A DNA stretch of 64,000 nt from a virus. Numbering within the stretch: the first letter of the stretch is position 1; each line of letters starts with the position of its first letter. The position numbers and the translations under genes were made by a program. The notes under the pieces were generated by a model. The model had not been told where the DNA came from. It was given only the letters and a program-made list of their open reading frames with translations, and ran no database searches. Location of the stretch: the IMG/VR virus record IMGVR_UViG_3300002925_000017. The stretch is one strand, 5' to 3'. This document shows, piece after piece, positions 25,438 through 49,500 of the stretch.

Positions 25438-28400
25438 ATGATTTGCATTGAACTAATTAATAATGAACAATTAAAATTTCAAAACGAGGATGAAGCAAAT
25501 TTGTTTGTTTATTGCTTACCAAATTCTTTAAAAGAATATTTATTAAATACTAATACAATTCAAGATGATTTTGTTTCAAATTCTTTAATCAAATATCATT
25601 CTGAATATATTAATAATACATTTAAAAATATAAATATAAATGATGAAGATTTATCTCATTTACTTAAAAATACCAAAAATATCAATATTATAATAGATAA
25701 ATTAGTAAATTTAATTGGTGTAAAACAAGTTTACAATAAGGTTTCTAATTTAAAAACAAAAAATTTAGATTTGTATAATGAAACTCTTTTTGCTTTAAAC
25801 CACATCGATAATATCTATAAAGATATTAATGAATTAACTCAAACAAAATTTGAACAAGTTGATTCTAATAATTATGAAGATGTAATTAAAGCAAACACTG
25901 CTTCTGATGCTACTTTATCTATTACTACTTCTGTTAACAATAGAGAGTCATTAGTTAAAAAATCTACTTTAGAACAAAATAAAAAATATATTCCTATAAG
26001 TATAGAAAATAATTTAATAATTGATAATACTGTAATAGATAAAATTGTAGAAAGTTTAAATGATATAGATGAAGAAAAATTTTATGAACAAACAAATAAA
26101 GATGAAGAAAAAATTAAAGAAAATAGCTCTTCTGCTATAGGTAGAAAAGAAATTTCTTCTAAAGATACTATCAAATATGATACACTTATTAAACCAGAAG
26201 TACAAAAATTATTTGATTCTAATCCTAAATTAGCTAATGAAGTGTATAAAGCTTTAGGATTTCAAGGTAATATAAATTTAGAATCTAATTTAAAAAATAC
26301 AGGTAAAACAGAAGAAGAGCTTATTGAATATCTTAAAAATAAATATCCTGAAATTAAGTTAAATATTTCTAATAATCCTGTATGGGAACAAGGAGATAAT
26401 ATATTTAATCAAGAAGAGTTTAATAATCAAGTTCAATATAGATTAAAAGCTGTAGAGATATTATCTTCTGATAAAGCTAAACAAATATTTGAAAAAGGAG
26501 AAAAAAATAAATGGAACTTAGATAGAATATTAACTGAATTACAAATACCTAAAGAACAAAAACAGATAATACTAAACTTAGGCAAAACTAATAGAGAAGA
26601 AATTATTACAAATTTATTAACTAATTTTAGTTATACTATTGAAATTAACACTGCTAAACAAAAAATACTTGAGAAAGGTAAATATGTAAATAATATACAA
26701 TTTAATTTAGATGGCTTTACTTATATTAAAGAAGGGTTAATATATGGTAAATTTAAAACTGGAACAAACGATAAAGTAATATTTATAGATAAAGAAGAAT
26801 TTGAGGAAGCTAAAAGAAAAAAATTAGCACAAGAAGAAAAACCTACTCAATATTACTCTAATTTAACAGTTCCGGGTGGTATTAATTATAGAGAAAACGA
26901 AATAGTTACACCATCTATTAAACCAAGTTTTAAAGGTCATGCGAAATTTAGTACAGATAAAGGTATTGGTTGGTTTAGAAGTGATGAAAAAAGTAATATC
27001 GGACAAATAAATACTGATTTAGAACAACTTGAAGAAGATTATAGAAATGGTGCGTTAACTGAAAATGAATATAAAGACGAATTACAAAGATTAGCAGAGC
27101 AAGGTATCTATAGAAAAAACGATTCTATTAAAGATTCTAAAACTCGTAGAATATTAGAAATACAATCTGATTTATTTCAAAAAAACAGAGATGAAAATAT
27201 AGCATTAGCTTGGAATAGATATATTTTAAATGATAAAGAAGAGATTATAGGAGAAAATCCTAATTTTCAAAATGAAAAAGATTTTTTAAATGTATTTAGA
27301 AAAGACAATAACTGGGTAAAATTTTTTATTAAATCTATTATACAAGACAGTGCTAAAAAAGGATATGAAAAAGTATGGTTTCCTAATGGGGATACAGCCA
27401 GTAAAGTTGAAGGACATACTACTTTAGAAGAATTTAAAAAACAAAAAGAAGAGGCAATATTAAGAAATGAGAAAAGATTAAATTCTTATTCTATTCAACC
27501 TTTTAATAATAAAGGTTTTAAAATTTTTGTCGGTGATGCTCCTCAATTTGATATTTTTAAAACAAAAGAAGAAGCAGAACAAAAAGTAAAAGAAATGTCT
27601 GCAAATGACATTAGAGAAATAGCACAACTTAAACAAGAAATTGAAAGAATAGAAAAAGAAGGATTTGGTTCTTTAAGACCTGTTTGGAATTTTTATGAAA
27701 ATACTATAAGTAATATCCTTAATAAAATTTATGGTAAAGAAAATGTAAAACAAATTACAGACGAATACGGTAATACTTGGAATGAAATAACTATTAATCA
27801 AGCAAGAGATTTATCTAATATATTACTTCAAAGAGATGAAGCCAATAGAATTATAGGTCAAGCTAATATTAGAGCTATGAGTGTTCTTGTAGATGCTATA
27901 AATAAAAAAGCAGATACAATACCACACGAATATGCCCATCATTATATTGCTTGGTTTAGAGATACTCCAATAGTACAAGAAGCAATAAAAAGATTTGGTA
28001 GTGAAGAAGCTTTAGTACAAGCTATAGGCGAACAAGTAGTTAAACAAAAAGGAGAAGCTTATAATTGGTGGAAAAAGTTTACTAATTGGATATTAAGTTT
28101 ATTATCAGATAAACAACTTTTACAAATACTTACAGATAGTTTTTTAAACAGATATAATCTAAATGACTTTACTTATAATGAAGTTAATGAGAAACAAAAA
28201 CAACTAGCCATACAACTATATTCTGAATACTTAGAATCATTGAACAAACCTAATGTCAATCCTAATATTAAAACTAATGTTAATACTAAACAAGAACCAG
28301 AAGATAAATCACGAGATAAAAATTACAAACAATTTGAAAAACTATTTTCAGATGAAGAAAATAAATTTTTTGTAGCAGAACAAAATATAAGAGATTTAGC

Positions 28401-29118
28401 AGAAAGAGTTTCTGCAAGAATAGGTATTTCTTATAAATTTGAAAATGATAAAACTAAAAAATATAAAAGATATTATAAAAATGGTGAAGCTGTAATTAAC
28501 TTAGCTTATGCTACATTAAATACACCTATATACGAAATATTAGGATATCCTATTATTAAAGTCTTAAAAAACAAAAATTCTAAATTATACAAAAATCTGT
28601 TAGAAGAAATTAAAATAGGTAGAGGTAAAGAAGTATTAGATAAAATTAAAAAGAATTATACTGAACTTAGTTTAGAAGAACAACAAGAAGAAGCAATAGT
28701 AATATTATTAGGAGAATTAACAACAAATAAGTTGAATGAAGTAAAAGATAAAAATCTTATATTTATATTAAAACAGTTATTAAAAGAAACGAATGACTTC
28801 GTCAGAAGTTTATTTAGCTCTGAAGAAATAAATTTAGACTTTAATGAATCTGATATAACTTATACAGATGAAAATGGCAAACTTTGTGCTGAAAATGGAT
28901 TACAATTATCTAAGTTTCAAAAAGGAGGTACTTGGGAAATCATTAAAGAATTTAAAGGTAAATCCCATGAACAAGGGGGTATTGATATTGAAATAAGTAA
29001 TGGGGTTATTAAAATGTCAAATAAACAGAATAAATTTAAAGCTAAGTTTGGTTTATTAATTCCTATAACGAAATATTATGCACAAGACGGGATTATTGTA
29101 TCAGAACTTTATAAATAA
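25438..29118 (+). CDS. N-terminal 1226-aa fragment of the interrupted gene (could still be expressed as a truncated protein)
   Basis: Long ORF; RRILEIQSDLFQK, HEYAHHY, KFQKGG, HEQGGID motifs. Confidence 0.7.
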   Translation: MICIELINNEQLKFQNEDEANLFVYCLPNSLKEYLLNTNTIQDDFVSNSLIKYHSEYINNTFKNININDEDLSHLLKNTKNINIIIDKLVNLIGVKQVYNKVSNLKTKNLDLYNETLFALNHIDNIYKDINELTQTKFEQVDSNNYEDVIKANTASDATLSITTSVNNRESLVKKSTLEQNKKYIPISIENNLIIDNTVIDKIVESLNDIDEEKFYEQTNKDEEKIKENSSSAIGRKEISSKDTIKYDTLIKPEVQKLFDSNPKLANEVYKALGFQGNINLESNLKNTGKTEEELIEYLKNKYPEIKLNISNNPVWEQGDNIFNQEEFNNQVQYRLKAVEILSSDKAKQIFEKGEKNKWNLDRILTELQIPKEQKQIILNLGKTNREEIITNLLTNFSYTIEINTAKQKILEKGKYVNNIQFNLDGFTYIKEGLIYGKFKTGTNDKVIFIDKEEFEEAKRKKLAQEEKPTQYYSNLTVPGGINYRENEIVTPSIKPSFKGHAKFSTDKGIGWFRSDEKSNIGQINTDLEQLEEDYRNGALTENEYKDELQRLAEQGIYRKNDSIKDSKTRRILEIQSDLFQKNRDENIALAWNRYILNDKEEIIGENPNFQNEKDFLNVFRKDNNWVKFFIKSIIQDSAKKGYEKVWFPNGDTASKVEGHTTLEEFKKQKEEAILRNEKRLNSYSIQPFNNKGFKIFVGDAPQFDIFKTKEEAEQKVKEMSANDIREIAQLKQEIERIEKEGFGSLRPVWNFYENTISNILNKIYGKENVKQITDEYGNTWNEITINQARDLSNILLQRDEANRIIGQANIRAMSVLVDAINKKADTIPHEYAHHYIAWFRDTPIVQEAIKRFGSEEALVQAIGEQVVKQKGEAYNWWKKFTNWILSLLSDKQLLQILTDSFLNRYNLNDFTYNEVNEKQKQLAIQLYSEYLESLNKPNVNPNIKTNVNTKQEPEDKSRDKNYKQFEKLFSDEENKFFVAEQNIRDLAERVSARIGISYKFENDKTKKYKRYYKNGEAVINLAYATLNTPIYEILGYPIIKVLKNKNSKLYKNLLEEIKIGRGKEVLDKIKKNYTELSLEEQQEEAIVILLGELTTNKLNEVKDKNLIFILKQLLKETNDFVRSLFSSEEINLDFNESDITYTDENGKLCAENGLQLSKFQKGGTWEIIKEFKGKSHEQGGIDIEISNGVIKMSNKQNKFKAKFGLLIPITKYYAQDGIIVSELYK

Positions 29119-31533: not shown

Positions 31534-34500
31534 ATGAGCTGTAAACCTACATATAAAGGAAAAAGATATAATTCTATCGAAGAATTAAAGTCTAAAAATG
31601 GAGTAATATCAGTAGATATGACTCTAAATGATTTAGCTAATATTCTATCTTATAGAAATTCTAACATTATTCTTCCAGGTTTTAAAAAATTAGTTGTTAC
31701 TAATAACGGTAATGAAACACAATTTAATAAATTAAGTGAAGAACAAATAAATGATGGAATAAATCAACCTGAACAAGAACAAGTAAAGAAATTTGCTGAA
31801 CTCCAAGAAATCTTATCTAATAAAGACTTTTTAGAAGGCGCTAAAAAAGTTTATGAATCTACACCTGATTTACAAAAATATGGTACTCAAGAAGAATACA
31901 ATGACTATGTAGCGAGAATTATTTTAGGAATTATTAAAAATCCTACAAGTGGTGATTATAATTATAATAGTAAAGTAAAAGATATTGTTTATCATGGTAC
32001 TATATACGAATTTGATAAATTTAACAGAGGTATAAATGGTATTCATTTTACAAAAGATAGAAAAATAGCAGAAACTAAGTTTGGTTTACCTAATCAACAA
32101 TTAATAAATGCAATACCAGAATTACAAGAAAAATATAAAGGTAAAAACTCAAGAGTAATAAGTGCTATTTTAAATGCTAATAAAATTGATAGACAAGAAG
32201 ATAAATTTGTATTTAAAGGAGATAGAGATTTTGAAATAGAAAGTAAAAGATTTAGAGAGTTAAATAAAGAATATGATGCTATTGAATATACAAATAAATT
32301 TGAGGGAGGTGAAAAAGATAGTATTTTAGTATTTGAACCAGAACAAATACACATATTAGGAGGTAAAGAAGATATAGAAGGATTTAAACAATGGAATATT
32401 GATAGACAAGTATTAGGTGTTCGGAAAGAATTACAGGATACTAAAGAAACTTTTTTAAAAGATACTTTAATTGAAGAATTATCATCTAAAATATCTTTAG
32501 GAAATTCTAATTCTATTAGTTTAACATTACAAAATTCAATAAAGCTTGAAATACCAATAGAAACAGAATTTGTTTTAAATTCTGAACAAGAAAAAGCATT
32601 TAAAGAAATTAGTGAATTTATAAAGAAACCTATTTCTAGTACTTATAAAATTCCTAGCAAAACAAGAAAAGGAGAATTTGATATAAATCCAGAGAATTGC
32701 TGGTTATTAAGTGGCGCCGGTGGAACAGGTAAAACTTTTCTTATAGGAAAGATTATAAAAGAATCTAATAAAAATTTTCATTTTGCTACACCTTCTCATA
32801 ATGCTAAAAGAGAACTTATGAACTCTTTAGTAGATTCTAATTTTTATATTAATGTTGATACTTTACAATCTATATTAGGTATTAGTACTACAAATGGTAA
32901 AGATTTCTTTTTAGAAAGTAGAGAAAGTGAAAGAGGTAGAAGAGTATTTCCTATTGATAATATACAATATCTTGTTATAGATGAGGCTTCTATGGTAGGT
33001 GGAGATTTATATGAAGCAATGTTAAAAAGATTTGAAGAAATAGGGAGGTCACCAAAAATTATCTTTTTAGGAGATTATGCACAAATTCCACCACCAAGTC
33101 AAAAAGATAAAACAAGAGATAGTGAAGTTATTGATTTGTTATATCATCAAAATAAAGATAGAGTTAGTTTACTAACAATTAACATGAGAGCTAAATATAA
33201 AGATTTAGCAGATAAAAATTTACAATTAAGAAGTTTTATAGATAGAATAAATGATATTTTAATATATAATAAAAAAAGTCAAAATACTATTAAAAATGTT
33301 TTAGAAGATTTTAATAAATATATTAAAACTAAAAAATTAACTAAAAATACTTCTTTATTTAATAAAGAAAATTATGAAGATTTTTGGAGTAAATATGTCG
33401 AGCAATATAAAGAAATGTTATCAAATAATTTGAGTTTGAAACATTTAGTAATGGTTTCTTATAATAACCAAAAAACTAAACCCGAGCTTGTACAAATTGT
33501 TAGAAGTAAATTATTTGGTGACAATCAAAAAAATAAAATAAACGTAAATGAATTATTAGTTATTAATAATAATGAATTAAATGTACCTAATTCAGTAAAT
33601 CTTTATAAAGATGAAAGAATATTAGTTTTAAAAATAGAAGATTCTAAAAGTAATAAAATTTTTATTCCTATAAATAATAAAACGAGCAAAGGTATTATTC
33701 TAAATTTAAAACATAAAATATTAACGGTAAAAGCAGAAGATGGTGAAATTTATAAAATTATATATCCTGAAAAACCTTTAAATGAAATAATAAAAGATGT
33801 CAATTCTAATAATTTTAAAGATTTTGATATAAATTCTTTACCAAAAACAAAAAATGATTCTATAAACAAAAATCAAATAATATTTGAATTATCAAAAAAT
33901 ATATTAGAATTTGATTATGGGTATGTAGTTACATCTCATAGAGTACAAGATTCTACTTACGATAATGTTTATGTTTTAGAAGATAACATTTTGAATTCTA
34001 ATGCCTCTGAAAAAGAAAAATTACAATTACTTTATACTGCATATTCAAGAGCGAAAAAACATTTAAATATTTTAAATAAAGACCAAATAATACTACCTGA
34101 CAACGGAGAATATGATAATACAGAAATTATAAATAGTTATCAAAAACGTTTAAAACCTTTTTCTATTCCTAATATTAAAAATGAAGATGTTAAAGAAATA
34201 AAAGTTCCGTCAGAATTCTATTCTGAAATAAAAGAAATATTATATCGTCATTTTTTAAAACAAATTAAAAAAGAAAACCAAAAAGAAGTACTAATAACTT
34301 TAAATATTTTTGGTGATAATATTTATGAATTAACAAATAAATACAGTCAAAAATTATTAGATGATTTTTTATATAATTTATTAAAATCTATTACAGAGTC
34401 TCCTAATTTTAAAAATAAGATTAGTTTAATAAAAACAAGCGGAGAAACAGGAATAGAAGAAGCAGCAAATAAAGCATCAAATAGTTTAAAAATACCAAAT

Positions 34501-37500
34501 GTTACATTAACTACTAAAGATTGGAAATTTACCGTAGATATTGACACTTTTAATAAAAATTATAAAGATAGAGTTTCTTCTTATAAAATAGATGGTTCAG
34601 ATGTGTATATATTTGATGAAAAATATTTTAAAGAAAGGTTTAATGCTGATATTAAACAAGAAGAAACAACAAATGAAAACAACGAATTTTTTATTAGTTC
34701 TAAAAATTTAAATAATAAAATTATTGTACTTCTAAAAGATAAAATAGTACCTGATGCAATAATAGAAAATGATGAATTTTTTAGAAGAAATAAATATGGA
34801 ATTACTGATGAATTTTATATAGATAAAGATAATTTATATATAAACATAGATAAATTTAGAACAAGTAAATCTATAAAGAATTTAATACCATTGTTTGTAT
34901 ATTCTATAAAAAAAGATAATTCTGAATTTTATCAAGAATTATTAAAACCAATCAAAAGTTTACCTTTTTATCCTAAAGAATTTGATACTATAATATCTAA
35001 ATATTCTAATGTTCAAATAGATATTGAAGCAGAACTTTTAATAGATACTTTGTTCAATAAATATGATTTTTATCCTAAAGAATTAATACAAAAATTTGAA
35101 AATGCAGTAAAAGAAAAATTATCAAAATGGTTAGGTAATGATAATTTTTTCGAAGCAAAAAATAGTAATTTTGGTATAGATGAAAATTTGAGAAGTAAAT
35201 ATTTTTCTGAATCTGAAACAGTTAAATCTTCTGAAATTCTTAATAAAATTGCTAATAGTGCAAGTAAACATAGAAATTTAGCAAGAAAATTATTAGAACA
35301 TATAAATCAAAATGATGTAAATATAATATTACTTGGTGAAAAAAATTATGACATTGATTTTGCCGGATTATATAGTCATGGCACTAATGAAATATTTATT
35401 AACGAAAATGGATTATTTGGAGATATTGAATCTGAAGGAGTTATTATACATGAAATTATACATGCTTTAACTTTACATAAATTAAAAAATAATAAAAATG
35501 AATATTCTAAAGAATTTACAAGGATTTTTAATGAAATAAAAAACAGTGATTTAGAAGAAGTAAAAAAGTTAATAAAAGATTTTGAATATGAGACTTCTAA
35601 TGTTTTTGAATTTATAACTAATTTATTTACAAATAATGAGTTTCAAAATAGATTAAAACAATTACCAGACCTTAAAAATAAAGATAAGAGTATTTTTCAA
35701 AATATTATAGATTTTATAAATAGACTATTTGGATTTAAAGAGAATAATGAATTGTTTGATAACTTAAATAAATTGTCTTATAAAATACTTGATACAAAAG
35801 ACCCAAGAATTTTCGAAACAGGTGATAAATTAATAGATTTAAATGATATAGATGAAAAATCTGTTTATTATGTATTAAATAAAATAAGTACTTTAAATCA
35901 TCCTTTAAGTAAGTTAGCTGAAAAATTATTACCTTATTCTGAAAATTTAGGTGTCAATTTTTATTTAGTAGATGTTGTTGGAACTAAAAAGAAAAGAATT
36001 TTAGAAAAAAATCAAGAGATAAATTATAATTTAGGTTTTTATACATACGATAGTAATTTTAGAGATGAAATATATATTAATAAAAATAATATATATAAAA
36101 ATAAAGATTCTATACCTACATTAATGCATGAAGCAATTCACTCTTTAACTTATCATAATTTAAGAAAAAATTCTGAATATGTAGAAGAATTAAAGAGAAT
36201 TTATAATTATGTTAAAGCTAATACTAATGAAAACTTTTATGCTTTAAAAGATTTAGATGAATTCATGGTAGGTATTTTTACAGATAGTCGATTTATAAAT
36301 TATTTAAAAACTATTAAGCCTATAGAAATTAAAAAATATAATAATGTTTTTGAAGAATTAATAGATTTCTTTTTATCTATTTTTAAAATTGAAAAAGGAG
36401 AATCTATTTATGAACAAGCTTTTATCGTTGCATCAAATATTTTTGAAAATGAAGAAATTCCAATACCAAATGAAGAATTTTTTACTCAAGATTCAGATGA
36501 AAGAGATATTTACTATCAAATAAATATATTACAAGAAGAATTTTTTAATTTTTATAAAACTTTAAGTGAACAAAATACAGAAGATTATTTAATTAAATAT
36601 ATATATCCTTCAAATATTGATACAATATTAGAAGAATTAAATGCTGATGATAAAGTAAAACAAGAGTTAAAAGACTATTTTTTATCTAATAGAGAATTAA
36701 TTTATTCTGCACCTAATATTTATGAATTAGTTAATTCTTATATATCTAATAAAGAAGCATTTGAATATTCCTCTATAAGTAAAAAAGCAGATAAAGAGTT
36801 AGATTCTTTACTTTTAGATTATTTAAAACCATTAAATATAGAAGTTAGAGATTTAAACGAAATTAAATCGAAACTTAAAATAAATTCTTTAGGTGTTGCA
36901 GATATAATAAATAAATTAATTTATGTTGCGCAAGATAGAAATATTGATACATTACCTGAAGAAGTAGCACATTTTTACGTTGAGTTATTAGAAAAAAGAA
37001 ATAAAAAAGGAGAAGAGCGTAAATATTTATTATATAGAGATTTAATGTCAAAAATTAGTTCTTGGGAAAAATATGATACATATTATAAACAATATAGCAA
37101 AATATATTTAAATCCTGACGGAACTGTTGACGAAAATAAAGTTAAAAAAGAAATAGTAGGAAAAGCAATAGCTGAGGCTTTAGTAAGAAAATTTGAAACA
37201 AAAAATAAACAACTTAAATCTTTAGTTCAAAAATTAATAGATTATTTAAAATCAATATTTAAAAATAGACCTGTTTTTCCTATAAATCTATTAGTAGATG
37301 ACATTGCTGAAAAAATATTAAATAAAGATTATTCAGATATAAACAAAGATTTACTTAAAGGCGAGTTTTTAAAAGATTATTTTGATATATCAAATGATAT
37401 AAAAAGCCTTATAAAGAATTTTTCTTCTTTAGGTGCAATATTAACTGGGTCTTTACCATTGAGACTTTATGGTTCAATATATAGAACTAAAGAAGAAGAA

Positions 37501-40500
37501 TTTCATGATTTTGATTTTAAAATACCAAAAGATATTAATAAACAAGAAATAATAGAAAAAGTTAAACAATTATATCCTTCGTATGAATTGAAAACAGAGT
37601 TTGATTCTTCTAATAATTATAGTTTATTATTCACAATCGAACATAATGGTAAAAAATATGATATTGACTTTTTCTTCCAAAAAGATGATTTTAATATAGA
37701 ACCTAAATTTAAATATATGCATTGGTACGATACCTTTAAAGCTAAATTAGAAATGGGCAGAGCTAAAGACGTAAAAGATTTTATTAATTTTAAACCATAT
37801 GAAAGAATTTACGAAGATACTCCAACTTTACAAAAACCATCTGATTTTTATTATCAAATAGAACCAGATAAAAGAGCTAACATTTTAATACAAAATAATT
37901 TACCTACAGAAGGTTTAGTTTTACCTATAGGTATATCTGGTTCAGGAAAATCTACTTGGATAAATACTATTCCAAATAAAATAGTTGTATCTCCTGATGA
38001 AATAAGAAAAGAATTGACAGGAAATATATCTGACCAGTCTAGAAATAAAGAAGTATTTGAAATAGCAAAACAAAGAGCGGCTAATTATTTAAAACAAGGT
38101 AATCTGGTTGTATTTGATGCTACTAACGTAAACACTGTTTTAAGGAATAACTTAATTAAAGATATAGAAAGTTTATTAGGATATCAAGTTCCTCTTTTTT
38201 ATAAAATATTTGAATCAGACCCTGAAATATCTAAACAAAGAATTAAAAATGATATAATTTCTGGAAAAAATAGAGCGAACGTTCCAGACCATATAATTGA
38301 GATTCAATATCAACAATATTTAGATACATTAAATAATTTAAGTATCCCTCGTTTTCAACTTTTTAAAGAAGAAGAAAATAATACAGAAACATATAAAAAC
38401 GAAGCTCTTGAAAAAACAATAAGAGATATTGCCGCAAGAGCTTCTATTAGAATAGGAATACCTTTTGAAATAATAAATAATAAGAATTTTAAAACTAAAG
38501 GATATTTTAGTAATGGTAAAGCTACAATAAATATAGCTTATGCCACTTTAGATACTCCGATACATGAAATATTAGGTCATCCTATAATTTATTATTTAAG
38601 AAAAACTAATAGTAAACTTTATAATAATTTACTTAAAGAATTAGAATATGGTAAAGGAAAAGAAGTTTTAGAAAGTACTAGAAAATATTATTCAAATCAA
38701 CAATTAATTGACGAAGATGCAATTAAAGAGGAAGCTATCGTAGAATTATTAGGATTATATACTGCAAATAAAATAAAAGAATCAGAAAATAAAAGTTTAT
38801 TCTCTTATCTAAGAGAATTATTAAAAACTGTAAAATCTATCGTAAGAGAATTGTTAAATAAAAAAGAGATAAAAATTGATGAACTACCAGATAATTTAAC
38901 TATATCTGATTTATCAAAAATATTAGCTTATGGAAATAATACATTTATACTACCACAATTTGATGTAAAATATAGAACACCTGATAATAATTATTTTTTA
39001 ACTTATGCTGAAGCAAGTAAGCATATATCAGATTTATTTAATAAATCATTAAAAGAAGAAGATTTTAATCTTACATTAGAAGATTTATATAATTTTTCAG
39101 AGAAAGATAAAGAAAAACTTTTTGAATTAAGAAGAGAACAAGAATTAACAGTAAACGAAAAAAGAGAATTAAAAAGATTAGAAATATTATATCGTTTTTA
39201 TCCGTTTAAAAAAGAAATAGAAAATTTTATAGATTATAACCAGAAATACGAAATTAGTAATTTCTTTATACAAAAATGGAAAGAAATTGAAGGAATAATA
39301 TATAATCCAAACGAAGTTTATAAAAATAATATGAATTTTTATCATAAGATTGGGGCATATAGTTATTTTGACCCTTCTTTATTATTACAAAATTTATTAG
39401 TTCATATAGAAGACCATGAAAGAGAGGGCTTTGATTTTATAGTTAGTGCTTTTACTAGACGAAAGAACGAAAGAGCACAATTTGAATCTATACAAAATAA
39501 TGATATTAGGATTGTTATTTATCCTAAAAAAGAAGATATAGTGGCAGCATATAGAAAAGATATATGGTCAGGGACTGCATATTTAAGTAAGGCGGTATCT
39601 GAATATTTTACAAATAAAAGAATGGAACTTGTAGGAATAACTGCTACTAAAGCCGCAACATATCAATTTAATTCGTTTCCTGAATATAATTTATATGATA
39701 CTTTAAATTATGACGTCGAATATGATATTGATTTTGAATATGATAAATTGTATAATTATAATGAAATATTAATAAAATTAAAAGGTAACAATTTTAGACT
39801 TGAATATGATAGAGATGTAATTCCTACATTAAAAAATCTTATAGATAAAATAAACGCTATATTAGATAGTAAATATGGAAAAATAGAAATACCAAAAGTA
39901 AAAGCAACATACGTCGTAGAAGAACAAACAAGACCTAATAGATATTTTGAAATCGCTGGTCCTTTAAAAGATTATAATAATTTAGAAATTGATGGATATT
40001 TAGACTTAAAAGAATATTATAAAAAGAAGAATATTAAAAATATATTTTTAAATAAAAAAGATAATAAATATTTAATAATAGCAAATAAATTTGACGGTTC
40101 TGAAGAAATTTTAGAAGAACACGAAATAGAAAAAATAGCAGAGTTTAGATATAAATTATATACAGGACAAGAAAAACCAGATTTTACAAAAAAAGCTAAT
40201 GAAAATTTTAGACTTTCACAATTAAAAGAATTAAATAGAAAGTATTTAAGAAGTTTAATATATACAGAAATAATAAACAAAGAATATCCTATAGATTTAT
40301 ATAATGAAACATTTTTTCAACGTATAAAACCAAATTCTTCTATTTTAGACAAAAGAATAGATTATCTTATAGAAGAATTTGGTGATGAAAATTTAAAAGA
40401 ACAAATAAATAAAACTAAATTTTACAATGTTTATAAAGAAGATGATAAAGAAATCTTAAATTTAATTAAATCAGGAAGAATAACACAAATTTGTCAAGTT

Positions 40501-40503
40501 TAA
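31534..40503 (+). CDS. large polyvalent protein, 2989 aa (ART-like, RecD/Dda-like SF1 helicase, SLOG-like, 4 zincin-like, nucleotidyltransferase, PNK/AAA_33)
   Basis: VYHGT...GIHFT; SGAGGTGKT/IDEASM/GDYAQI/YTAYSRAK; TSGETGIEEA; HEIIH, HEAIH, EEVAH, HEILGH; LTGSLPL...HDFDF...DIDF; GISGSGKST...SPDEIR...DATN. Confidence 0.85.
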   Translation: MSCKPTYKGKRYNSIEELKSKNGVISVDMTLNDLANILSYRNSNIILPGFKKLVVTNNGNETQFNKLSEEQINDGINQPEQEQVKKFAELQEILSNKDFLEGAKKVYESTPDLQKYGTQEEYNDYVARIILGIIKNPTSGDYNYNSKVKDIVYHGTIYEFDKFNRGINGIHFTKDRKIAETKFGLPNQQLINAIPELQEKYKGKNSRVISAILNANKIDRQEDKFVFKGDRDFEIESKRFRELNKEYDAIEYTNKFEGGEKDSILVFEPEQIHILGGKEDIEGFKQWNIDRQVLGVRKELQDTKETFLKDTLIEELSSKISLGNSNSISLTLQNSIKLEIPIETEFVLNSEQEKAFKEISEFIKKPISSTYKIPSKTRKGEFDINPENCWLLSGAGGTGKTFLIGKIIKESNKNFHFATPSHNAKRELMNSLVDSNFYINVDTLQSILGISTTNGKDFFLESRESERGRRVFPIDNIQYLVIDEASMVGGDLYEAMLKRFEEIGRSPKIIFLGDYAQIPPPSQKDKTRDSEVIDLLYHQNKDRVSLLTINMRAKYKDLADKNLQLRSFIDRINDILIYNKKSQNTIKNVLEDFNKYIKTKKLTKNTSLFNKENYEDFWSKYVEQYKEMLSNNLSLKHLVMVSYNNQKTKPELVQIVRSKLFGDNQKNKINVNELLVINNNELNVPNSVNLYKDERILVLKIEDSKSNKIFIPINNKTSKGIILNLKHKILTVKAEDGEIYKIIYPEKPLNEIIKDVNSNNFKDFDINSLPKTKNDSINKNQIIFELSKNILEFDYGYVVTSHRVQDSTYDNVYVLEDNILNSNASEKEKLQLLYTAYSRAKKHLNILNKDQIILPDNGEYDNTEIINSYQKRLKPFSIPNIKNEDVKEIKVPSEFYSEIKEILYRHFLKQIKKENQKEVLITLNIFGDNIYELTNKYSQKLLDDFLYNLLKSITESPNFKNKISLIKTSGETGIEEAANKASNSLKIPNVTLTTKDWKFTVDIDTFNKNYKDRVSSYKIDGSDVYIFDEKYFKERFNADIKQEETTNENNEFFISSKNLNNKIIVLLKDKIVPDAIIENDEFFRRNKYGITDEFYIDKDNLYINIDKFRTSKSIKNLIPLFVYSIKKDNSEFYQELLKPIKSLPFYPKEFDTIISKYSNVQIDIEAELLIDTLFNKYDFYPKELIQKFENAVKEKLSKWLGNDNFFEAKNSNFGIDENLRSKYFSESETVKSSEILNKIANSASKHRNLARKLLEHINQNDVNIILLGEKNYDIDFAGLYSHGTNEIFINENGLFGDIESEGVIIHEIIHALTLHKLKNNKNEYSKEFTRIFNEIKNSDLEEVKKLIKDFEYETSNVFEFITNLFTNNEFQNRLKQLPDLKNKDKSIFQNIIDFINRLFGFKENNELFDNLNKLSYKILDTKDPRIFETGDKLIDLNDIDEKSVYYVLNKISTLNHPLSKLAEKLLPYSENLGVNFYLVDVVGTKKKRILEKNQEINYNLGFYTYDSNFRDEIYINKNNIYKNKDSIPTLMHEAIHSLTYHNLRKNSEYVEELKRIYNYVKANTNENFYALKDLDEFMVGIFTDSRFINYLKTIKPIEIKKYNNVFEELIDFFLSIFKIEKGESIYEQAFIVASNIFENEEIPIPNEEFFTQDSDERDIYYQINILQEEFFNFYKTLSEQNTEDYLIKYIYPSNIDTILEELNADDKVKQELKDYFLSNRELIYSAPNIYELVNSYISNKEAFEYSSISKKADKELDSLLLDYLKPLNIEVRDLNEIKSKLKINSLGVADIINKLIYVAQDRNIDTLPEEVAHFYVELLEKRNKKGEERKYLLYRDLMSKISSWEKYDTYYKQYSKIYLNPDGTVDENKVKKEIVGKAIAEALVRKFETKNKQLKSLVQKLIDYLKSIFKNRPVFPINLLVDDIAEKILNKDYSDINKDLLKGEFLKDYFDISNDIKSLIKNFSSLGAILTGSLPLRLYGSIYRTKEEEFHDFDFKIPKDINKQEIIEKVKQLYPSYELKTEFDSSNNYSLLFTIEHNGKKYDIDFFFQKDDFNIEPKFKYMHWYDTFKAKLEMGRAKDVKDFINFKPYERIYEDTPTLQKPSDFYYQIEPDKRANILIQNNLPTEGLVLPIGISGSGKSTWINTIPNKIVVSPDEIRKELTGNISDQSRNKEVFEIAKQRAANYLKQGNLVVFDATNVNTVLRNNLIKDIESLLGYQVPLFYKIFESDPEISKQRIKNDIISGKNRANVPDHIIEIQYQQYLDTLNNLSIPRFQLFKEEENNTETYKNEALEKTIRDIAARASIRIGIPFEIINNKNFKTKGYFSNGKATINIAYATLDTPIHEILGHPIIYYLRKTNSKLYNNLLKELEYGKGKEVLESTRKYYSNQQLIDEDAIKEEAIVELLGLYTANKIKESENKSLFSYLRELLKTVKSIVRELLNKKEIKIDELPDNLTISDLSKILAYGNNTFILPQFDVKYRTPDNNYFLTYAEASKHISDLFNKSLKEEDFNLTLEDLYNFSEKDKEKLFELRREQELTVNEKRELKRLEILYRFYPFKKEIENFIDYNQKYEISNFFIQKWKEIEGIIYNPNEVYKNNMNFYHKIGAYSYFDPSLLLQNLLVHIEDHEREGFDFIVSAFTRRKNERAQFESIQNNDIRIVIYPKKEDIVAAYRKDIWSGTAYLSKAVSEYFTNKRMELVGITATKAATYQFNSFPEYNLYDTLNYDVEYDIDFEYDKLYNYNEILIKLKGNNFRLEYDRDVIPTLKNLIDKINAILDSKYGKIEIPKVKATYVVEEQTRPNRYFEIAGPLKDYNNLEIDGYLDLKEYYKKKNIKNIFLNKKDNKYLIIANKFDGSEEILEEHEIEKIAEFRYKLYTGQEKPDFTKKANENFRLSQLKELNRKYLRSLIYTEIINKEYPIDLYNETFFQRIKPNSSILDKRIDYLIEEFGDENLKEQINKTKFYNVYKEDDKEILNLIKSGRITQICQV

Positions 40504-43500
40504 CAATTTACTAATCTTAATGTTTTTTCTTGTTTTTCTGCCTTTTTTAATTGAGGTTTGTTATAGTTCATTATAACTTTATTAGGATTAATATATTTTA
40601 AATCTTTTTCAAATTCTTTAGCATCAGATATACTTAATATATTATTACTAATTAATAAGTGCACAAACTTTTCATTACTATCTATATATGAAAAATCCAT
40701 ATTCGGATTGTTTATAATTTTACTATGTAAAAAATTATTAAATTCTATTGATATTGCGTCATTCTTATCAAAAAATCTAGTAAATGCTCTTTCTCGTAAA
40801 GAGTCTCTATGTACTAACATATTATACAATCTTAAAACATTATATATTGAATTATTTTGTATATATTTATTTTTTAAAGACTTTAATGCTAAACTCAAAC
40901 TTGTATATTTTAATGATTTACTTGAATTAGATAAATCTGTATGATTTTCGTTCATTTTCCAAAAAGTATATTTTTTACCAAAAATATCATAATCAACGTC
41001 TTCTATTAAATTATTTATAAACTCGTTTAACATTAATTTAGGGTCTGCTTTTAATGCAGGAAAAAATACTTCTTCGGCATATCTTATAAATTCTTTTCTA
41101 TCTTCTTCATTAGCTAAATTAAATAAATTTCCTTTTTCATTAAACACTTTAATTTGATTTGAATATTTCTGTAAAAACTCATCTATAAATAAATTATCAA
41201 ATATGTTATTTAATTTATTAAAAGTTTTTTCATCAATTCTATTTATATCTATAAAATTATTTCTATGAAAGTGCATTAATAATTTTTTTATATTATTTAA
41301 TCTTAAAGCAGTATTTCTATATACTTTTTCAGCAGAAGCAAATATTTCATATTGAGCTCTTGTATGAGGGTTAATTGCTATAAGATACAAAGGATTAAAT
41401 GTATCTTTAACTTTATCAAATTCTTTAATATAATTTAACGAATAAGAATCGTATTTTTCTTTACCCTGTAACCAATCATCAAAACCTTTTAAGTTTTCTA
41501 TAAACCTAACTAAATCAAACTCTTCTGCCATTTTCTTTAATTTATCATTTTTTTCACTTTTACTTTTCATATATTCTATAAGCATTTGTTCAAACTGAAA
41601 GATTGCAAAATTATCTGATTTTAATCCTTGATTTATACTAAATAATTTACTTATTATTCTAAATTCTTTTGTTTTGTCGTATAGCAATTTGAAAGATTTT
41701 AAATTTTCATCTTTTGATTCTAAATTTTTATATACAGCGTCTAAATTAGAAACATCTTTCGAATAAAAGTTTATATCTTTTGTTTCGAGTAAAGATTTTA
41801 CATTTTTTTGATTTAATATATAAGCTATATCTTCTGTTGGTATTCCTAATATAGAACCCAAAGAATAAATAGGTGCTGTTGTCATAGTAGAATTTAATCC
41901 TCCTAATTTTAATTCTTTTGCATTATCAGTTGCTAAATTTAATAATTCACCAAGAATATCAAAAGCTTTATCTTGTAAATTTAACTCATTTCTTAATTCT
42001 TTTAAACTTTTTCCACTATATAGTTCTTTTACTATAAAATTTATAGTTTCCTCATTTAAGATATCTAAATTTAAATTAGCGGGCATACTATAAGTTTTAG
42101 TTGATGTATTATTATCTCTTTCTATTTTTATTGTTAATTTTGGTATTTTTAAAATAGACTTGAATAATTCTTTTTTATCTTTATCTTGATAACTTTTATA
42201 TAATTCTAAAGTTTTGTAATAAGATGCTGTTATACCTGATAATACTTTTAATCCTGTTGCAAAAATTCCTATTTCTTCTTTACCTAACATATTATCATAT
42301 TTCATACTAACTTTAGACATTAAAGAATAATTAGACATTAAAGAAATACTATTATTTGTATAATTATCAGATATTTGACTTAAATAATCAACATTAATTG
42401 CTTTTTCTCTAACTATAATATTTCTTGGGTCATTTACTAAATCTATAAAAGAATCTATTATTTGATTTTCTATATCGTCATTTGGTTTATTTAAATTATA
42501 ACCTATAATAGTAGTTTTATCTACATCGTAATCACCACCAGTTAAAATTTGATGGTCATTATTAAGCATAATAGTATTTTCTTCAGTATGAATAAATCCT
42601 ACTATTTCGTTAACCATTACAGAAGCTAAAGATTGTAAAGGTATTCTTTGAGTCACAAATTGATTTGATTTAGAAAATTGTTCTCTTTTCATTTCAGAAA
42701 AAGAATTTAATAGTTCTTCTTTTATTTGTTTTTTATTTTTTACTTCTTGATATTTTCCTTTAGCTAATTTTTTAACTAATTTTTGTTTTTGTTCTTTTGT
42801 AAATTTAAAAGATTCATCAGATAAATAAGAATTTATTAAATTTTCATCAGAAAGACCTATATAATTAAAGAAATCATAAGCAGCTTTAATATTAGTAAAT
42901 ACTTTATTCTTAAAATAATCTTCTGATTTTATTTGATTTATAGAACTATTATTATTTATATAAAACATTCTTTTCCACAAACTTGGAGCTAACATCTCTC
43001 CTTTTGTTGCTTGCCAATAGGTTTTATCTTTTTGAACTAATTGATTAATAAACCTTTGTAATCTATTTTCTAATTCTCTTGTTGTTTCTTTATCGGCTTG
43101 TCTTAATAATTCTGAAAAAATAGCTTGTTCTGATAAACCTTCAAATTCTGATTTTATATTTAGTTCTTTAGATATATTTTTTAAATCTAAAACGCTTACT
43201 TCTTCGATTGGAATAAAACCTCTATCAGTTTTTAACTTTAATTCTGCTTTTTTCAAATCTCTTGGTTTTACATCTAAAATTATTCCTTCTTTCTCTTTTT
43301 GTTTTTTATATAATCTATACTCATATCCTTGCATGATTTTTCCATCAACTTCATAAATTTGTGTCGGTGGTTTAATTACCAACATAGCACCTTTTAACTT
43401 CTTTTTTATACCTTCTTTAGTTAAATAACTATTAAAACTACTTAAAAGTATTTTAACTATTTGTCTATTATCAAAAGAAGGCGTTTTGGAATAATTTATT

Positions 43501-46500
43501 ATTTCTTTTGTTAATTGAGTTACTGTTTTTTCTTCTATAGAATTTTTTAGAAAATCCCTTATTATGTTTATAAGTTCAATTCTCTCTTGTTCTTTTAATT
43601 CATTCTTTTTTACTAATTCTACTAATTTTTTATCTATAGATTTTAAACTTAATTCTTTTATATAATTAAATATTTTTTGCGATTTATCAAAAGTATATCC
43701 ACCAAAAGCAGTAGCATTTATTAATTGTGCAGGTAAAGTAGCTTCACTTTCTTCTACACTTTTTTCTGATGCTAATTGAATACCTCTCGTAGTATTGTCA
43801 AATTTCATAAATCTAAGTGATTTACCTTTATTAAATAGATATTTATTATCTACTTCTTGAGAAGTATTAATATTAACTTGCCCTGTTTTTACAGCAGATA
43901 TAAATGATATACTTTCTATATATTTACCTTTTATAGATTTCTTTTGTGCTAATTCTATTACTTTTTTCTTCTCTTCTATTACTTTATTAAGAAAAAGTTT
44001 ATATAAACTATATTCATCATCGTCTAAATCTAAAGGAGAAACAGGTTGACTTTTATAATATATTATACCATTATTATAAGAAAATTCTCCTATAGGATTT
44101 ACTTCTACTTTTATATTATCTAAGAAATTCTTAATTTCTATTTTATGTATAAGTCTTGATATATCATTACTATCTTTTATTGTAGTAAAAGTATATTTAC
44201 CTTTTATATCTCCGTTTTCTACTTCTTTAACTGTATAAGCACCTCCTAACCCTTTCCAAATATCTAACATATTTTTTGCAATAAAAGGTTTTGATTCTAC
44301 CACTTCATCTTTTTCTACATCATAATAAATAGATTTTTCATTTACTAAGATTTCCTCATCAAATTGTATAGAACTTAACATTTGTTCTATATACTTTTGC
44401 CAATCATATTTAGTTCCATAGCTATTTCTTATCATTTCATTAGTTATGGTAAAATCATTATGTTTTTGAAAACTAACTGCCCCTGTTCTTTGGTCATAGT
44501 TTACTCCTACAGATTTATGATGAATACCCGGATTAAACCCTATTTTTCCACCTAATGAAATTTCTTTTTTTAATTGAGCAAAATGTAAAGTAAATGTTGC
44601 ACCATCAGCATAATCTTTATTTTGAGGTTTATTTATTAAACTTTTAAATACTTGTGTTGGGTCTTCTATAATAGCAATATTTGAATATCTATTAATTCCT
44701 TCTGGATTTTTTATTAAATCTGTATAGTAAGACATAAAAGTTGATACGCCCATTTTATTTCTTTTTACATTTTCAACAAAACTCTTACCAATAGAATTTC
44801 CTTTATATTGTATAATATCTCCAGATATTCTTCTTGCAAAAGGCAAATTGACTACTAAGTTTTCTAATAAAAATATATAATCTAAAGGATTTATTTTAAT
44901 TTTGTTATTTACCTGTATTAATACATTGTTATTTTCATAAAAATCTTTATATAAATTATCTTTTTCTAATTTTTTATATTTTGCTATTTCTTTTTTAGCA
45001 TTATTTTTAGGTAAAAGATTTAAATAATATGCATCTCCATAAATTAAATCAGTTGTTTTTAAATCATCTTTATCACCAAGAACAATTTTTATAAATTCAT
45101 CTTTTTTATAATTTTTAACTAAATTAATTTTATTTATTAAATCTTCTCTAATACCTTTCTTAAAATAATGAATACCTCTAATTACATTAACTCCTTTGTT
45201 ATATAGCAAATTTGTAACTTCTTCTTCTGTTAAATTAACAATTAATTTTTGTATATCATCAATATTAGAAATATTAACATCAGTATTATTTATTTGATTT
45301 AATTCTTTTTCTGCTTTTTTAAAATCTTCAACTAATATTTTTTCTAAATTTAAATAATAACTCCTTTCATTATCATAAAAAGCTTGTTCTATTAAATCTA
45401 TTCTTTGTTTTAAAGACATATTGTCGATAGATAAATTTTCATTTTTACCTATAACTCTATATATTTCATTTAAATCTATGCTTAAAATATGTTCTTTGTT
45501 AGAATCAGAGCCAACATAAGGAAAGAAATAAACTTTACTATTAATAAATGCTTTTTCTGAATTTAAATTTTTTGCTAAGTTTTCATAATAATAAGGATTG
45601 ATTAAAGAATATAATATTTCATTTTTATTCATTCTTTTATGAGGTTTCACTAAAGAACCAGCTTTAACTCCATCATTTAAACTAATCTGTTTTATTCCTA
45701 CAAAAAACTTTTCATTTTGAGATGCAATAGTTAATTTATCTATTAAATCTTTTTTAAATACTTGCGGACTATTTTTAACTCTTTGAAAGAAATTATTTGT
45801 ATTAGTCATTGATGAAAACTTAGACACAGCATTTCCTTCTTTATTAATTAAAACAGATTTAATTTCTGTATTATCTACAGCATTTATTATCTTAGATATG
45901 ACTTCAAAATCATCAATTATTTCTTTAAATTTAGAAATATTTGTAACTTGTTTTTTACTACTTGTTTCAAATAATAATTTTTTAAATTTTGATTCTTTTT
46001 TAAAACTTTGTACAAATTTTTGAATTTCATAAACAGGTTTATTTTCTGTTATCATTTTATTTATTTGACTAACTATTCCTACTTTATTTGAACTTTCTAT
46101 TAAAAATTTCTTAAGTAAATTTATACTTTCAACTCTATCCGAATTTCCATAAATAGATATAAAGTATTCTCCATATTTAGTCAAGTCACCTGTTTCTGTT
46201 ATAAAATAAATACCTGTTATTTTTTGAATTAAGTATTTATCTTCAAAATGTTGCAACGTTTCTAAACCTATTTCGGTTTCATCAAATTTTAAATCTTCTT
46301 TTAATTTTTTATAATATTCATTAGATTTATCTATAAGTATTGATTTCTCTTTAAATGTTTCTTTTGTTTCTTCTACTAAAAAAGAATCATTTTGTTTATT
46401 TATAGAAACAAAATAGTTTCTGTTAGTATTTACAAATACATTTTCTATAGCACTGTGAAATAGTCTTAATAAAGTAGATTTATTATTTGAAACTATTGAA

Positions 46501-49500
46501 TCTAATGATTTATTTGTTCTTTTTTTATTATATCTATCTATATACTCAAAATCAGAATCGTTATATAAAAACAGATATAATGAATTATATATATTTCTTT
46601 TTGCAGGGTCTTCTTCTTTTCTTGCTTTTTCTAATATTACAAATTTTAATGAATCGTGATTTAGAGAATAAAAAGGATGACTTTTTATTTCATCTATTAA
46701 ATTTAGAACTTTTGCGTATTGCAAAAAACCCACCTGAATATATCCTTCTTTTGTTTTTGTTAAAAGAGGTAAGTTATTTATAATATTTATAAATAAAGAT
46801 GTACCAAATTTTTCGATTGCTATATCTTCGTCATATCCTTTTTCAAAGAAGTCTTGATTTTTTCTTATATATTTATTTTTCTCTTTTTTAATTAAACTTT
46901 TTAAATTAGTATCATATTTTATGAATTTATCAAAATCATTTAATATAGTATAATCTACGTAATCGATTATAACTTCAAGTTCTTTTTCAGACTTATTCTC
47001 TTTTTCAAGAAGATATTTTTTAAATAATTGTTCGGGCTTTTGAGAAGAGTAAAAGTCATTAAAAGTTCTATTATTTAATATTTTTTCTATTTTTTCTTCA
47101 TTACTAATATCTAAATCTAAAAAATCATTTATAGTGTATATACTATTTTTATCATATTCTATTGTTAATCCTTCTATTTTTTTAGCTAAATTAGAAATTA
47201 ATTCTAATTTTTTTGCTAAAATACTTTTATTTACATCTTTAGCTTTTATAAAAGTTCCTTTTTCAAAATCAATAAATGTATTTGGTCTAATAATATCTCT
47301 ATATAATCTATCTAAAGTAAATTCGTATAAAAGATAAATACCTTTAAATCTAAAATTTAATATATCTTCTAATGTTTTTATTTCTGAAGAAAAATCAGCA
47401 TAATCTTCTTCAAATTCTTCTACTTCTTTATTTATTATTTCATCTTTTATAGTTAAATCTTTTTGGGTTTCTTCTTCTGTAATATCTAATACATCTTTTG
47501 GAGTATCTTTAGTTTCATCTAAAATAACTTCATCAGTTATTTCTTCTTCAGACTGATTATTTATAGATGTTTTTTCTACTTCTTGATTTGTTTTTTCTGT
47601 AGGTTTAAATTCATTATCTTCTGTAATATTTAATAAATCTTTAAAAAATCTCAAATCTAAACTTATTTCTATAGGAGATATTCTTGCTTTAGTTTTTACT
47701 GTTGGTTCTATAAAAGCTATTTTATTTTTAGGATTTCTGTTAGCTGTTTTCTTAAATTTTACTCCTAAACCGGTTTGAATATTATTATAAAGCCTATCTA
47801 TTTCTTTTGGTAAAGGTATAGTTTCTGCATTTTCTTTTTTTATTTTATGAAATAACTTGAGTATTGGAAGTATCTTTATTTTTTCAAAAATTCTATTTGT
47901 TCCTGATAAATTATCAAAGAATTTCTCTTTTAAATATGAATCTAATTTAGCAGTTTCTATAGAAAGAAATTCTTTCTCATCTAATTCATCTGATATTTTG
48001 CTTAATAATGAATTTGTTTTAAATTCATCTAAAAAAGTAGCAACTGTTGGGTTTGATGTATTAATATCTTTTAATAAAGCATGTACTAATTGCATCAGTT
48101 GAATTATACCGTCATTAGAAGTAACAGATTCTAAATAAGCTATAAATTCTGAATCAGTTAAATTACCTCTATTTTCATACTCCTTGATTATTTCTAATAT
48201 TGATTTATCAATATTATCTAATAAAAGAAGACCAACTTGTGTTCTAGAATTTTTATCAGAATTATACCATTTTTCAAATAAAGCAGACAAATCAGATTCA
48301 TCATTTGATAAATCTATGTCTTTATTATATGTATATAAAACCGCAGGTCTGCCTTTTAATTTAAATCCTTGAGTAATAACAAAAGGTTTAGAAATTTTAA
48401 CAGCAGGATGATTATCAATAAAATCTGTAAAAGTTTGTTCTTTGTCTTTAAATATTTTACCTCTTCCTCTATTTTTTAAATTAAATAATTTATTAACTAA
48501 ATCTTTGTTTAAAATTATTTCATTATTATTATTGATTAATTTTTCTCTTAATTCAACTAATATATCAAATATTTCACTGCCGTATTTATTTTTATAATAC
48601 AATAATGCCTCACCAGAACCGAATTCATTTTTTGCAGGATTTTTTCTAAAATCATCAATTAAAGGTAAAGCAAGTAAATCAATGGTTATATTATCAAATG
48701 ATGCACTAATAAGCATTTGCTTAGGAGACACTCCTTCTAAAAATTCAGGTTTAAATTGAGTAGCTCCTTTTGCCAATACATCATTTTCTTTCCAGTCTAT
48801 TAATTCTAATTTATATTGTAAATTAGAAATGTCATATTTATCAGTTATTCCAAAGTATTTAAGATATTCATCAAATTGTTCTTGGATTCCTTGTGAAAAA
48901 AATATAGCATTTTTAAGTATAGTTAATTTATCTTCTGTATATAAATAGTATTCTTTACCTTGTTTTTCTATAATTTCAGGGTTAAAACCTAATTTTTCTG
49001 CTCTTGTTTTGTTATTATACCAAGAAAATAATCTTACAAATTCATTTTTATAATTATCAGGAGAATCATCTTCATAATTGTCTTTTATTTCACCATCTAT
49101 AGATATCTGTTGGTCAGATATTTTTTGAACATCATTAAATACTTGTTCATCCATCTCTTCGTCACTCAATACGACTTTTGGAGAAGGAGTAGTTGTAGTA
49201 AAATTAGATAAAGATTTCTTTTTAAAATCTTTATATTTTTGTATGGTATCATTATCAAGAGGAATTGTCAGTTCTATTTTTTCTAATTCTTTATATATAT
49301 TAAAACTTATTTGATAATCAAAGTTTTTTGGTTTATTATAGTAAGTTGCTTTTTTAGCTCTTGATACTAAAGTATATAGTTGTTTAAGGTAAGCATGAGT
49401 TTTATAATTACCTTGATATTGTTTATCAGATAAAATAAATACATAATCAAATTCTTGACCTTGTATTTCATCATAAGTAAATACTTGACCTATTGATTCA

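Follow-up and report, generated by a model that had tools for sequence, protein, structure and literature searches.

The 64,000-nucleotide stretch of viral DNA analysed here (IMG/VR record IMGVR_UViG_3300002925_000017; "the window" below) contains, at positions 31534–40503 of the plus strand, an intact open reading frame (ORF) whose 2989-amino-acid product, P0001, belongs to the phage-type polyvalent proteins as defined by Iyer et al. (2017; PMC5512222), with at least 10 modules in one chain. Judged by their conserved residues, an ADP-ribosyltransferase (ART) of the ART-PolyVal type, three zincins, a nucleotidyltransferase (NTase), and a 5′-OH polynucleotide kinase (PNK) have kept their catalytic signatures, and two further modules, a cpYpsA piece and an ART-like domain that we call M7, have decayed. 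It is rather probable that the gene as a whole is an intact polyvalent gene whose product is packaged and ejected as virion cargo, processes itself, and acts on RNA ends through its NTase and kinase.

The ORF, listed among those of the window and already delineated in a first-pass annotation made from the sequence of this DNA, is uninterrupted throughout. Since it stays open for 2989 codons at 22% G+C, a composition at which random stop codons would make up ~9% of all codons (roughly one in 11), the frame is a maintained gene rather than a chance occurrence; the G+C content of the window DNA is 20–31%. A 71.9-kb JGI metagenome contig encodes an identical protein; the gene as called there begins 28 codons further in, which leaves out 31534–31617 and gives 2961 amino acids. 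Residues 1–60 of P0001 are homologous to the N-termini of the giant proteins P0048, P0031, and P0035, and this homology supports the ATG at 31534, and with it the longer form, over the JGI start.

Enzymatic modules of P0001

All modules described below lie on the plus strand. The nine domain calls of the first-pass annotation stand as statements of homology or fold, and their spans agree with the Pfam, PHROG, and fold results obtained here; a tenth module, M7, and its decay had been omitted. The support differs between domains: ART-PolyVal, the helicase, zincins 1 and 2, and the kinase are clear, the NTase is clear from its fold, and zincin 4 is backed by its motif, weak fold matches, and a profile link.

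The Pol-beta-fold NTase (aa ~1952–2090; 37387–37803) was recognised by a fold search with its AlphaFold2 (AF2) model. Its motifs run in the order TGS, R, HDFD, DIDFFF, then KxxxGRxKDxxD, and the TGS, HDxD (HDFD), and DFF (DIDFFF) motifs are kept in relatives. In VIA alignments, the model scored highest with MenT1 (8an4; Z 10.0, root-mean-square deviation (rmsd) 2.9, 129 residues aligned) and LnuA (4wh5; Z 9.7), followed by ANT(2″) (4xje; Z 9.1) and TglT (6j7n; Z 8.8), with rmsd ~3 over ~128 residues. Foldseek returned only entries of the Pol-beta superfamily (Pol lambda/beta, JHP933). As modelled, the domain is clearly of the Pol-beta superfamily, and its nearest members are MenT toxins, LnuA, and ANT(2″). 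In several proteins, the tripeptide YYQ, which occurs about twice as often as expected in the family (27 vs. 13), borders the NTase module on its C-terminal side. Its occurrences in the window are at 36511–36519 and 37849–37857, and it is also found in the relatives P0003, P0019, P0028, P0030, P0032, P0043, and P0046; it may be a linker or cleavage motif.

The 5′-OH polynucleotide kinase follows at aa 2128–2276 (37915–38361). It is matched by Pfam AAA_33 (1.4e-13, aa 2128–2257) and by PHROG 505, polynucleotide kinase (2e-12). Its best PDB matches (E 2e-7) are 4jst and 4gp7, 171-residue chains deposited as "Metallophosphoesterase", which we take to be the kinase domain of Clostridium thermocellum Pnkp. 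The GSGKST P-loop, the general-base Asp2155, the end-binding Arg2158, and the DATN motif all align with 4jst.

Four zincin-like domains are interspersed among these enzymes, and the motif positions given for them in the first-pass annotation were exact. Zincin 1 (aa ~1230–1440; 35221–35853) has HEIIH at residue 1306 (nt 35449) and Glu1359, and its tandem duplicate, zincin 2 (aa ~1455–1660; 35896–36513), has HEAIH at residue 1532 (nt 36127) and Glu1576. Both stretches are matched by the Pfam SprT-like family (37 bits), and the H, E, H, and downstream E are invariant in 17 relatives for zincin 1 and likewise invariant in relatives for zincin 2. A weak, non-significant PDB match of zincin 1 (E 0.5) to the 1239-residue phage chain gp10 (entry 23sg) spans the HExxH helix and the region that follows; this chain might represent a virion or ejection protein of known structure that contains the same peptidase. 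Zincin 4 (aa 2285–2440; 38386–38853) is of the HExxxH type, with HEILGH at residue 2344 (nt 38563) and Glu2400, and the H, E, and H of its motif and the downstream Glu do not vary among 22 relatives. Polyvalent metallopeptidases with an HEXXXH motif have been described as a clade (Iyer et al., 2017; PMC5512222).

The third zincin-like domain (aa ~1745–1935; 36766–37338) has EEVAH at residue 1809 (nt 36958). Across 12 aligned members E65, E66, H69, and a later K-x-E-A-x-G-K helix are invariant, and the first His is Glu throughout. In hhalign comparisons, the EExxH domain matched the HExxxH profile of zincin 4 with a probability of 92% (E 6e-7), EExxH falling on HExxxH and the later Glu on the third ligand, and matched zincins 1 and 2 more weakly (73%). 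By this profile relationship, the domain, called a zincin on first inspection, is a zincin homologue with its first ligand changed; the comparison with the HExxxH zincin led us to abandon the idea that it is unrelated to zincins. Its AF2 model is all-helical, has no sheet, and is of low confidence. Wherever both are present in a relative, the EExxH domain comes before the NTase; several relatives have an EExxH domain without the NTase. A polymerase-like arrangement of the two domains was also considered and rejected, as Foldseek superposition of the EExxH–NTase model on family X polymerases over ~270 columns gave an rmsd of 17–20.

The ART-PolyVal domain (aa ~145–290; 31966–32403; tool span aa 151–273) carries a VYHGT motif at residues 152–156. 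It reaches 33.1 bits with PF18760 when residues 1–330 are searched as a slice and 28.4 bits when the whole of P0001 is used, against a cutoff of 31.2. All 26 of the columns that are at least 85% conserved in 40 family members are matched in P0001; assigning the strand-2 aromatic and strand-5 acidic residues needs a model. Like this domain, zincins 1, 2, and 4 show zero deviations at conserved columns. Downstream of the ART lies a Dda/RecD-like superfamily 1 (SF1) helicase (aa ~340–860; 32551–34113), which is matched at aa 386–848 by Pfam AAA_30, AAA_19, PIF1, and UvrD_C_2 and by PHROG 325, Dda-like helicase (9e-52), and was aligned with PDB 9kwf. Motif I (GTGKT), motif II (DEASM), and YTAYSRAK are all present.

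No other part of the family is as well conserved as module M7 (aa ~2593–2785; 39310–39888). Its best fold matches are consistently CteC, DarT, and Tpt1/KptA: the top VIA matches are all ARTs (CteC 8ux2, Z 6.9–7.0 with 156–157 residues aligned; DarT, 5.9 and 5.6; Tpt1, 5.2), Foldseek gave CteC (prob 0.96, E 0.028), and Atlas language-model features of an intact M7 member pointed to ART families only (scores 0.82–0.87). No profile similarity to ART-PolyVal was detected by hhalign, and M7 had no Pfam or PDB sequence match. We consider M7 to be probably an ART-fold domain. M7 of P0001 no longer has the SRGQ, His, and Ser conserved in its family: 38 of 98 conserved columns deviate, the most among 23 members, with YSRGQ changed to YKNNM (SRGQ to KNNM) and the replacements H2650F, S2681T, and H2742Y. 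On these losses, M7 is probably inactive in P0001.

Behind the helicase, aa 909–1000 (34258–34533) form a truncated and degenerate cpYpsA (SLOG) domain, related to P0059 and to PF12694-type proteins. Residues 915–1045 share 39% identity with the cpYpsA segment of P0059 (best BLASTP local alignment 36%, E 2e-17), and a profile built from both segments retrieves 190 stand-alone proteins, nearly all with PF12694; Pfam gave no direct match to the piece itself. Against a 178-position profile of these proteins, P0059 is full-length and P0001 spans positions 68–159 only, with 21 of 46 conserved columns deviating and the nucleotide-binding loop GGQTGxDE reading SGETGIEE. The description of this piece as a remnant was apt, since it is, by its alignment, a true homologue that has been truncated and has decayed. 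Helicase-fused relatives of the cpYpsA region were also sought with a word-based search, which returned none.

A sequence element of ~50 residues, TLxDLAxILAYxNxxIILPG[YF], occurs twice in P0001, at 31609–31686 and at 38863–39021. Copy 1 (aa 26–51; hidden Markov model (HMM) E 4e-10) is shortened and reads TLxDLAxILxYxNxxIILPGF, and copy 2 (aa 2444–2496; HMM E 1e-27) is of full length. The element is found in 25 proteins (24 relatives and P0001), either directly after zincin 4 or near the N-terminus. N-terminal copies follow a leader of the form M[SA]C[KI]xxYKG in which Cys3 is invariant. In P0001, the leader MSCKPTYKGKRY and copy 1 together occupy 31534–31686; the leader is common to the N-termini of P0048, P0031, P0015, P0035, and P0120, and Cys3 is invariant in the six aligned N-termini. 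The element is a candidate address tag, or a candidate new N-terminus left by zincin cleavage.

Two regions complete the chain. An orphan stretch (aa ~1040–1205; 34651–35148) lies between the cpYpsA piece and zincin 1 and is without BLAST coverage among the giant relatives. The C-terminal region (aa ~2800–2989; 39931–40503) is partly common to ~8 relatives. Pfam found nothing in the NTase, EExxH domain, zincin 4, M7, orphan stretch, or termini, either directly or via 17 relatives, and Atlas features of aa 880–1230 and 1040–1230 gave nothing usable. PDB sequence-profile searches with the EExxH–NTase, zincin 4–M7, and M7 alignments gave chance matches only, and AlphaFold DB clusters gave weak matches only, mostly unnamed.

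A pool of recombining modules

Among 5.8 billion proteins searched, 57 giant relatives were found besides P0001. They are 1.7–4.6 thousand residues long, and each shares only 4–23% of the length. The mapped matches resolve into discrete recombining modules: a constant triad of zincin 4, element, and M7; a dyad of EExxH domain and NTase; and ART-PolyVal, present in ~40 proteins. The modules of P0001 are drawn from a pool that is recombined among hundreds of giant metagenomic phage proteins. The combination had initially been put forward as possibly undescribed. No other protein among the 5.8 billion has the full architecture, so the exact string is unique, but uniqueness of this kind is trivial for a mosaic class whose individual modules are found in many proteins.

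An exhaustive search with the NTase–kinase piece retrieved 3202 proteins, mostly via the kinase. The best 150 of these 3202 included 147 that were new, 38 of them longer than 1000 residues. When all relatives were pooled, 154 of 204 had the kinase, and 45 of those 154 exceeded 1000 amino acids. The module directly after the kinase is ART-PolyVal in 12 relatives, the head of a CCA-adding enzyme in at least six, and zincin 4 in four. NTase and kinase are also contiguous in at least three relatives (P0077, P0124, and P0066). P0045 and P0060 combine the kinase with a full CCA-adding set, comprising the PolyA_pol head, HD, and tRNA_NucTran2_2. The closest architectural relative is P0060 (contig L004, 44.5 kb), which has a helicase, EExxH–NTase, CCA-adding head, NDK, HD, and PNK. 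A scan of IMG/VR with peptide patterns from aa 1230–2350 yielded no confirmed relative.

Genomic setting, proposed action, and alternatives

The plus strand upstream of P0001 carries replication-type genes for a DNA ligase, SF2 and DnaB-like helicases, and a DNA polymerase, together with lysozyme and RIIA genes. The DNA polymerase has its best matches in crAss-like phages, at 29% identity. Downstream, the P0001 gene is convergent with a 4571-aa ORF on the minus strand (40500–54215), and its stop codon overlaps the end of that gene. This ORF, identified in the first-pass annotation as a putative virion RNA polymerase, carries the motif GGDYDVDK at residue 3895 and matches SF1 helicases weakly; its C-terminal 2666 residues had no tblastn match in phage genomes. 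P0001 lies in a block of giant genes beside a putative virion RNA polymerase gene. A 1226-aa ORF upstream (25438–29118) encodes a second polyvalent protein, which has other modules in common with the same family. Its HExxxH zincin paralogue (28339–28869) reads TPIYEILGYP, in which both zinc-binding His are changed to Tyr and the Glu is kept.

The source reads as a very AT-rich, distant crAss-like phage, an assignment based on the DNA polymerase matches and the DYDVD motif. At the nucleotide level, 20 kb of sequence had no megablast match in phage genomes. With the whole of P0001 as the tblastn query, matches in these genomes were limited to the helicase and a single zincin piece and came from crAss-like phages. 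A scan for sigma-70 promoters and terminators performed no better than on shuffled sequences in this AT-rich DNA.

Under the reading that we favour, P0001 would be made as one chain, most likely packed in the particle, and delivered with or before the DNA. The four zincin-like domains between the effectors would then cut the chain at its linkers. The ART would modify host targets, and the Dda-like helicase would act on the incoming DNA. The MenT/LnuA-type NTase and the Pnkp-type 5′ kinase would act on RNA ends, most likely of tRNA, so that ends damaged by host nucleases would be healed or remodelled. Packaging and ejection are suggested by the gene position, the protein class, the common N-terminal leader, and the cargo capacity of crassviruses, whose particles store megadaltons of cargo protein (PMC10172136). 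Cleavage of the chain by its zincins is the standard prediction for the class, in which interspersed zincins are expected to let a polyvalent protein process itself (PMC5512222).

Several observations weigh against this reading. P0001 lies on the replication-gene strand and is convergent with the polymerase gene, and its late co-expression with virion genes is not evident. Neither an RNA ligase nor Hen1 was seen among the ten larger ORFs examined in the 64-kb window, which is a part of the genome, and no 3′ phosphatase domain was found after the kinase in P0001 (Pfam) or elsewhere in the window. Without a 3′ phosphatase and an RNA ligase in the window, a complete T4-type RNA repair path is not visible. 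The nearest structures of the NTase are toxins and drug-modifying enzymes, none of them repair enzymes, and NTase–PNK adjacency is rarer than PNK–ART adjacency. The fold matches of zincin 4 (VIA Z ~5, to anthrax lethal factor, PPEP/Zmp1, and PprI) and those of M7 remain below Z 8. Helicase motif V reads QDST, against QGST in relatives and in the nearest solved relative, 9kwf, so that Asp replaces a conserved Gly.

The position of the gene bears on an account in which P0001 has the same domains and is not virion cargo. It would instead be expressed early or midway through infection from the plus strand, as a self-processing polyprotein acting in the infected cell in counter-defence, takeover, or repair. 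The block from 25.4 to 40.5 kb indeed shares its strand with the replication genes, opposite the polymerase/cargo operon, and P0001 has no transmembrane segment. Nor is the flipped orientation a local accident, because P0060 is likewise convergent on giant genes of the opposite strand and the layout is thus conserved. Most relatives, however, are co-directional within arrays of giant genes on 87–100 kb contigs, the arrangement typical of the crassvirus cargo block. The N-terminal leader and element are common to several giant proteins, as would be expected of an address signal, and ART-PolyVal is typically found in proteins predicted to be packaged in the head (PMC5512222, PMC9503650). We regard expression without packaging as the less likely course.

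A second alternative concerns what the NTase and kinase do. Both could be weapons of host shutdown, a MenT-like NTase blocking the 3′ ends of host tRNAs and a zeta-toxin-like kinase poisoning a host metabolite. The best structural matches of the NTase include the toxins MenT1 and TglT, Pfam Zeta_toxin matches the kinase of several relatives, and polyvalent proteins are rich in toxin-derived domains (PMC5512222). With toxins and antibiotic-modifying enzymes as the nearest structures of its model, the NTase may conceivably have an offensive role, but the fold leaves its substrate unfixed because LnuA and ANT(2″) reach scores as high as those of the toxins. The Asp-x-x-Arg pair that typifies 5′-OH polynucleotide kinases is retained in the kinase, whose best match is 4jst/4gp7 rather than any zeta toxin. 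Relatives carry this kinase in fusion with a repair enzyme, a complete CCA-adding enzyme that includes HD. A purely offensive pair is, in our view, unlikely.

A function at RNA or tRNA ends is the best reading of the NTase–kinase pair, favoured because the kinase resembles that of Pnkp and is repeatedly fused to CCA-adding enzymes. The first-pass annotation had gone further and suggested an end-repair module. That suggestion gains indirect support from the Pnkp-like kinase and the kinase–CCA enzyme fusions, but "repair" is at most a candidate role, since there is no phosphatase and no visible RNA ligase, and the NTase is toxin-like. The replication block encodes an ATP-dependent DNA ligase (2476–3534; PF01068, 4e-14), the one ligase seen in the window; it could partner the kinase on DNA rather than RNA ends.

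A different two-step activity is proposed because ART-PolyVal is the module that most often directly follows the kinase (12 proteins). Tpt1/KptA-type enzymes can cap 5′-phosphate ends with ADP-ribose. The polyvalent proteins could then be delivered combinatorial cassettes that modify nucleic-acid ends, with the kinase making 5′-phosphates, the ART capping them with ADP-ribose, and the zincin 4–element–M7 triad forming a self-cleaving cassette with a new ART family. If true, kinase–ART capping would shield the RNA or DNA ends of the phage or put those of the host out of use; we rate this proposal as speculative and improbable. It is very doubtful that the P0001 gene is a relic, left from a displaced cargo block, that is decaying and no longer works as a whole. 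Signs of decay are the loss from M7 of the most conserved residues of its family, the truncation and degeneration of cpYpsA, the altered motif V of the helicase, and the change of both zincin His to Tyr in the upstream polyvalent gene. Against decay, a frame of 2989 open codons at 22% G+C is incompatible with neutral drift, the ART and zincins 1, 2, and 4 are free of deviations at conserved positions, and catalytic residues are retained in the NTase and kinase.

Relation to described systems and significance

P0001 resembles the polyvalent proteins of Iyer et al. (2017; PMC5512222) in being a giant phage polypeptide with many unrelated enzymatic domains in a mosaic, shuffled architecture. The likeness extends to ART PolyVal (Tox-ART-HYD2), interspersed zincins including HEXXXH, a Pol-beta NTase, and proximity to a virion RNA polymerase gene. 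Polynucleotide kinase, SF1B Dda-like helicase, and cpYpsA have zero occurrences in the main text of that paper, whereas P0001 has all three. The NTases described there are minimal, come from firmicute conjugative elements, and are fused to ArdC-N; the NTase of P0001 is MenT/LnuA-like and always follows an EExxH domain. The zincin 4–element–M7 triad is not named in that survey.

As in bacterial Pnkp (of Pnkp-Hen1) and T4 Pnkp, the P-loop, Asp, Arg, and DATN are kept in the kinase of P0001. Unlike Pnkp, it has no attached phosphatase or adenylyltransferase/ligase domain and is embedded in a chain of 2989 amino acids. The NTase shares with MenT/AbiEii toxins, LnuA, and ANT(2″) the Pol-beta fold (Z 9–10 over ~130 residues), the GS…DxD…D pattern, and a C-terminal helical K/R/D motif. 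It differs from them in having no Pfam NTase match and no antitoxin partner, and in its fusion to a zincin-like domain and a kinase. The cargo block of PhicrAss001 (Bayfield et al., 2023; PMC10172136) likewise has giant genes beside a putative virion RNA polymerase. In contrast to P0001, which lies on the strand opposite the polymerase gene, its cargo proteins are not described as strings of enzymes, and no sequence similarity between them and P0001 was found by tblastn of phage genomes.

Four features of P0001 and its relatives deserve attention. A Pnkp-type kinase is common in such proteins, though it is absent from the text of the founding paper (PMC5512222). An EExxH domain always stands before the MenT/LnuA-like NTase. 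A Dda-helicase–cpYpsA unit sits inside a polyvalent protein. A probable new ART family is part of the conserved triad.

CrAss-like phages dominate gut viromes. Polyvalent proteins are predicted to be a phage's first strike after entry. To our knowledge, almost none of them has been studied experimentally, and none in crAss-like phages. As P0001 and its relatives show, these phages recombine modules from a defined set, comprising ART-PolyVal, four kinds of zincin, a MenT/LnuA-like NTase, a Pnkp-like kinase, a CCA-adding enzyme, and a candidate new ART family, several of which are absent from the founding survey. The recurrent fusions of the kinase with CCA-adding enzymes and with ARTs give rise to testable hypotheses of tRNA- or RNA-end warfare between phages and Bacteroidota-type hosts, and the conserved leader and element provide a candidate signal for the loading of proteins into the phage particle.

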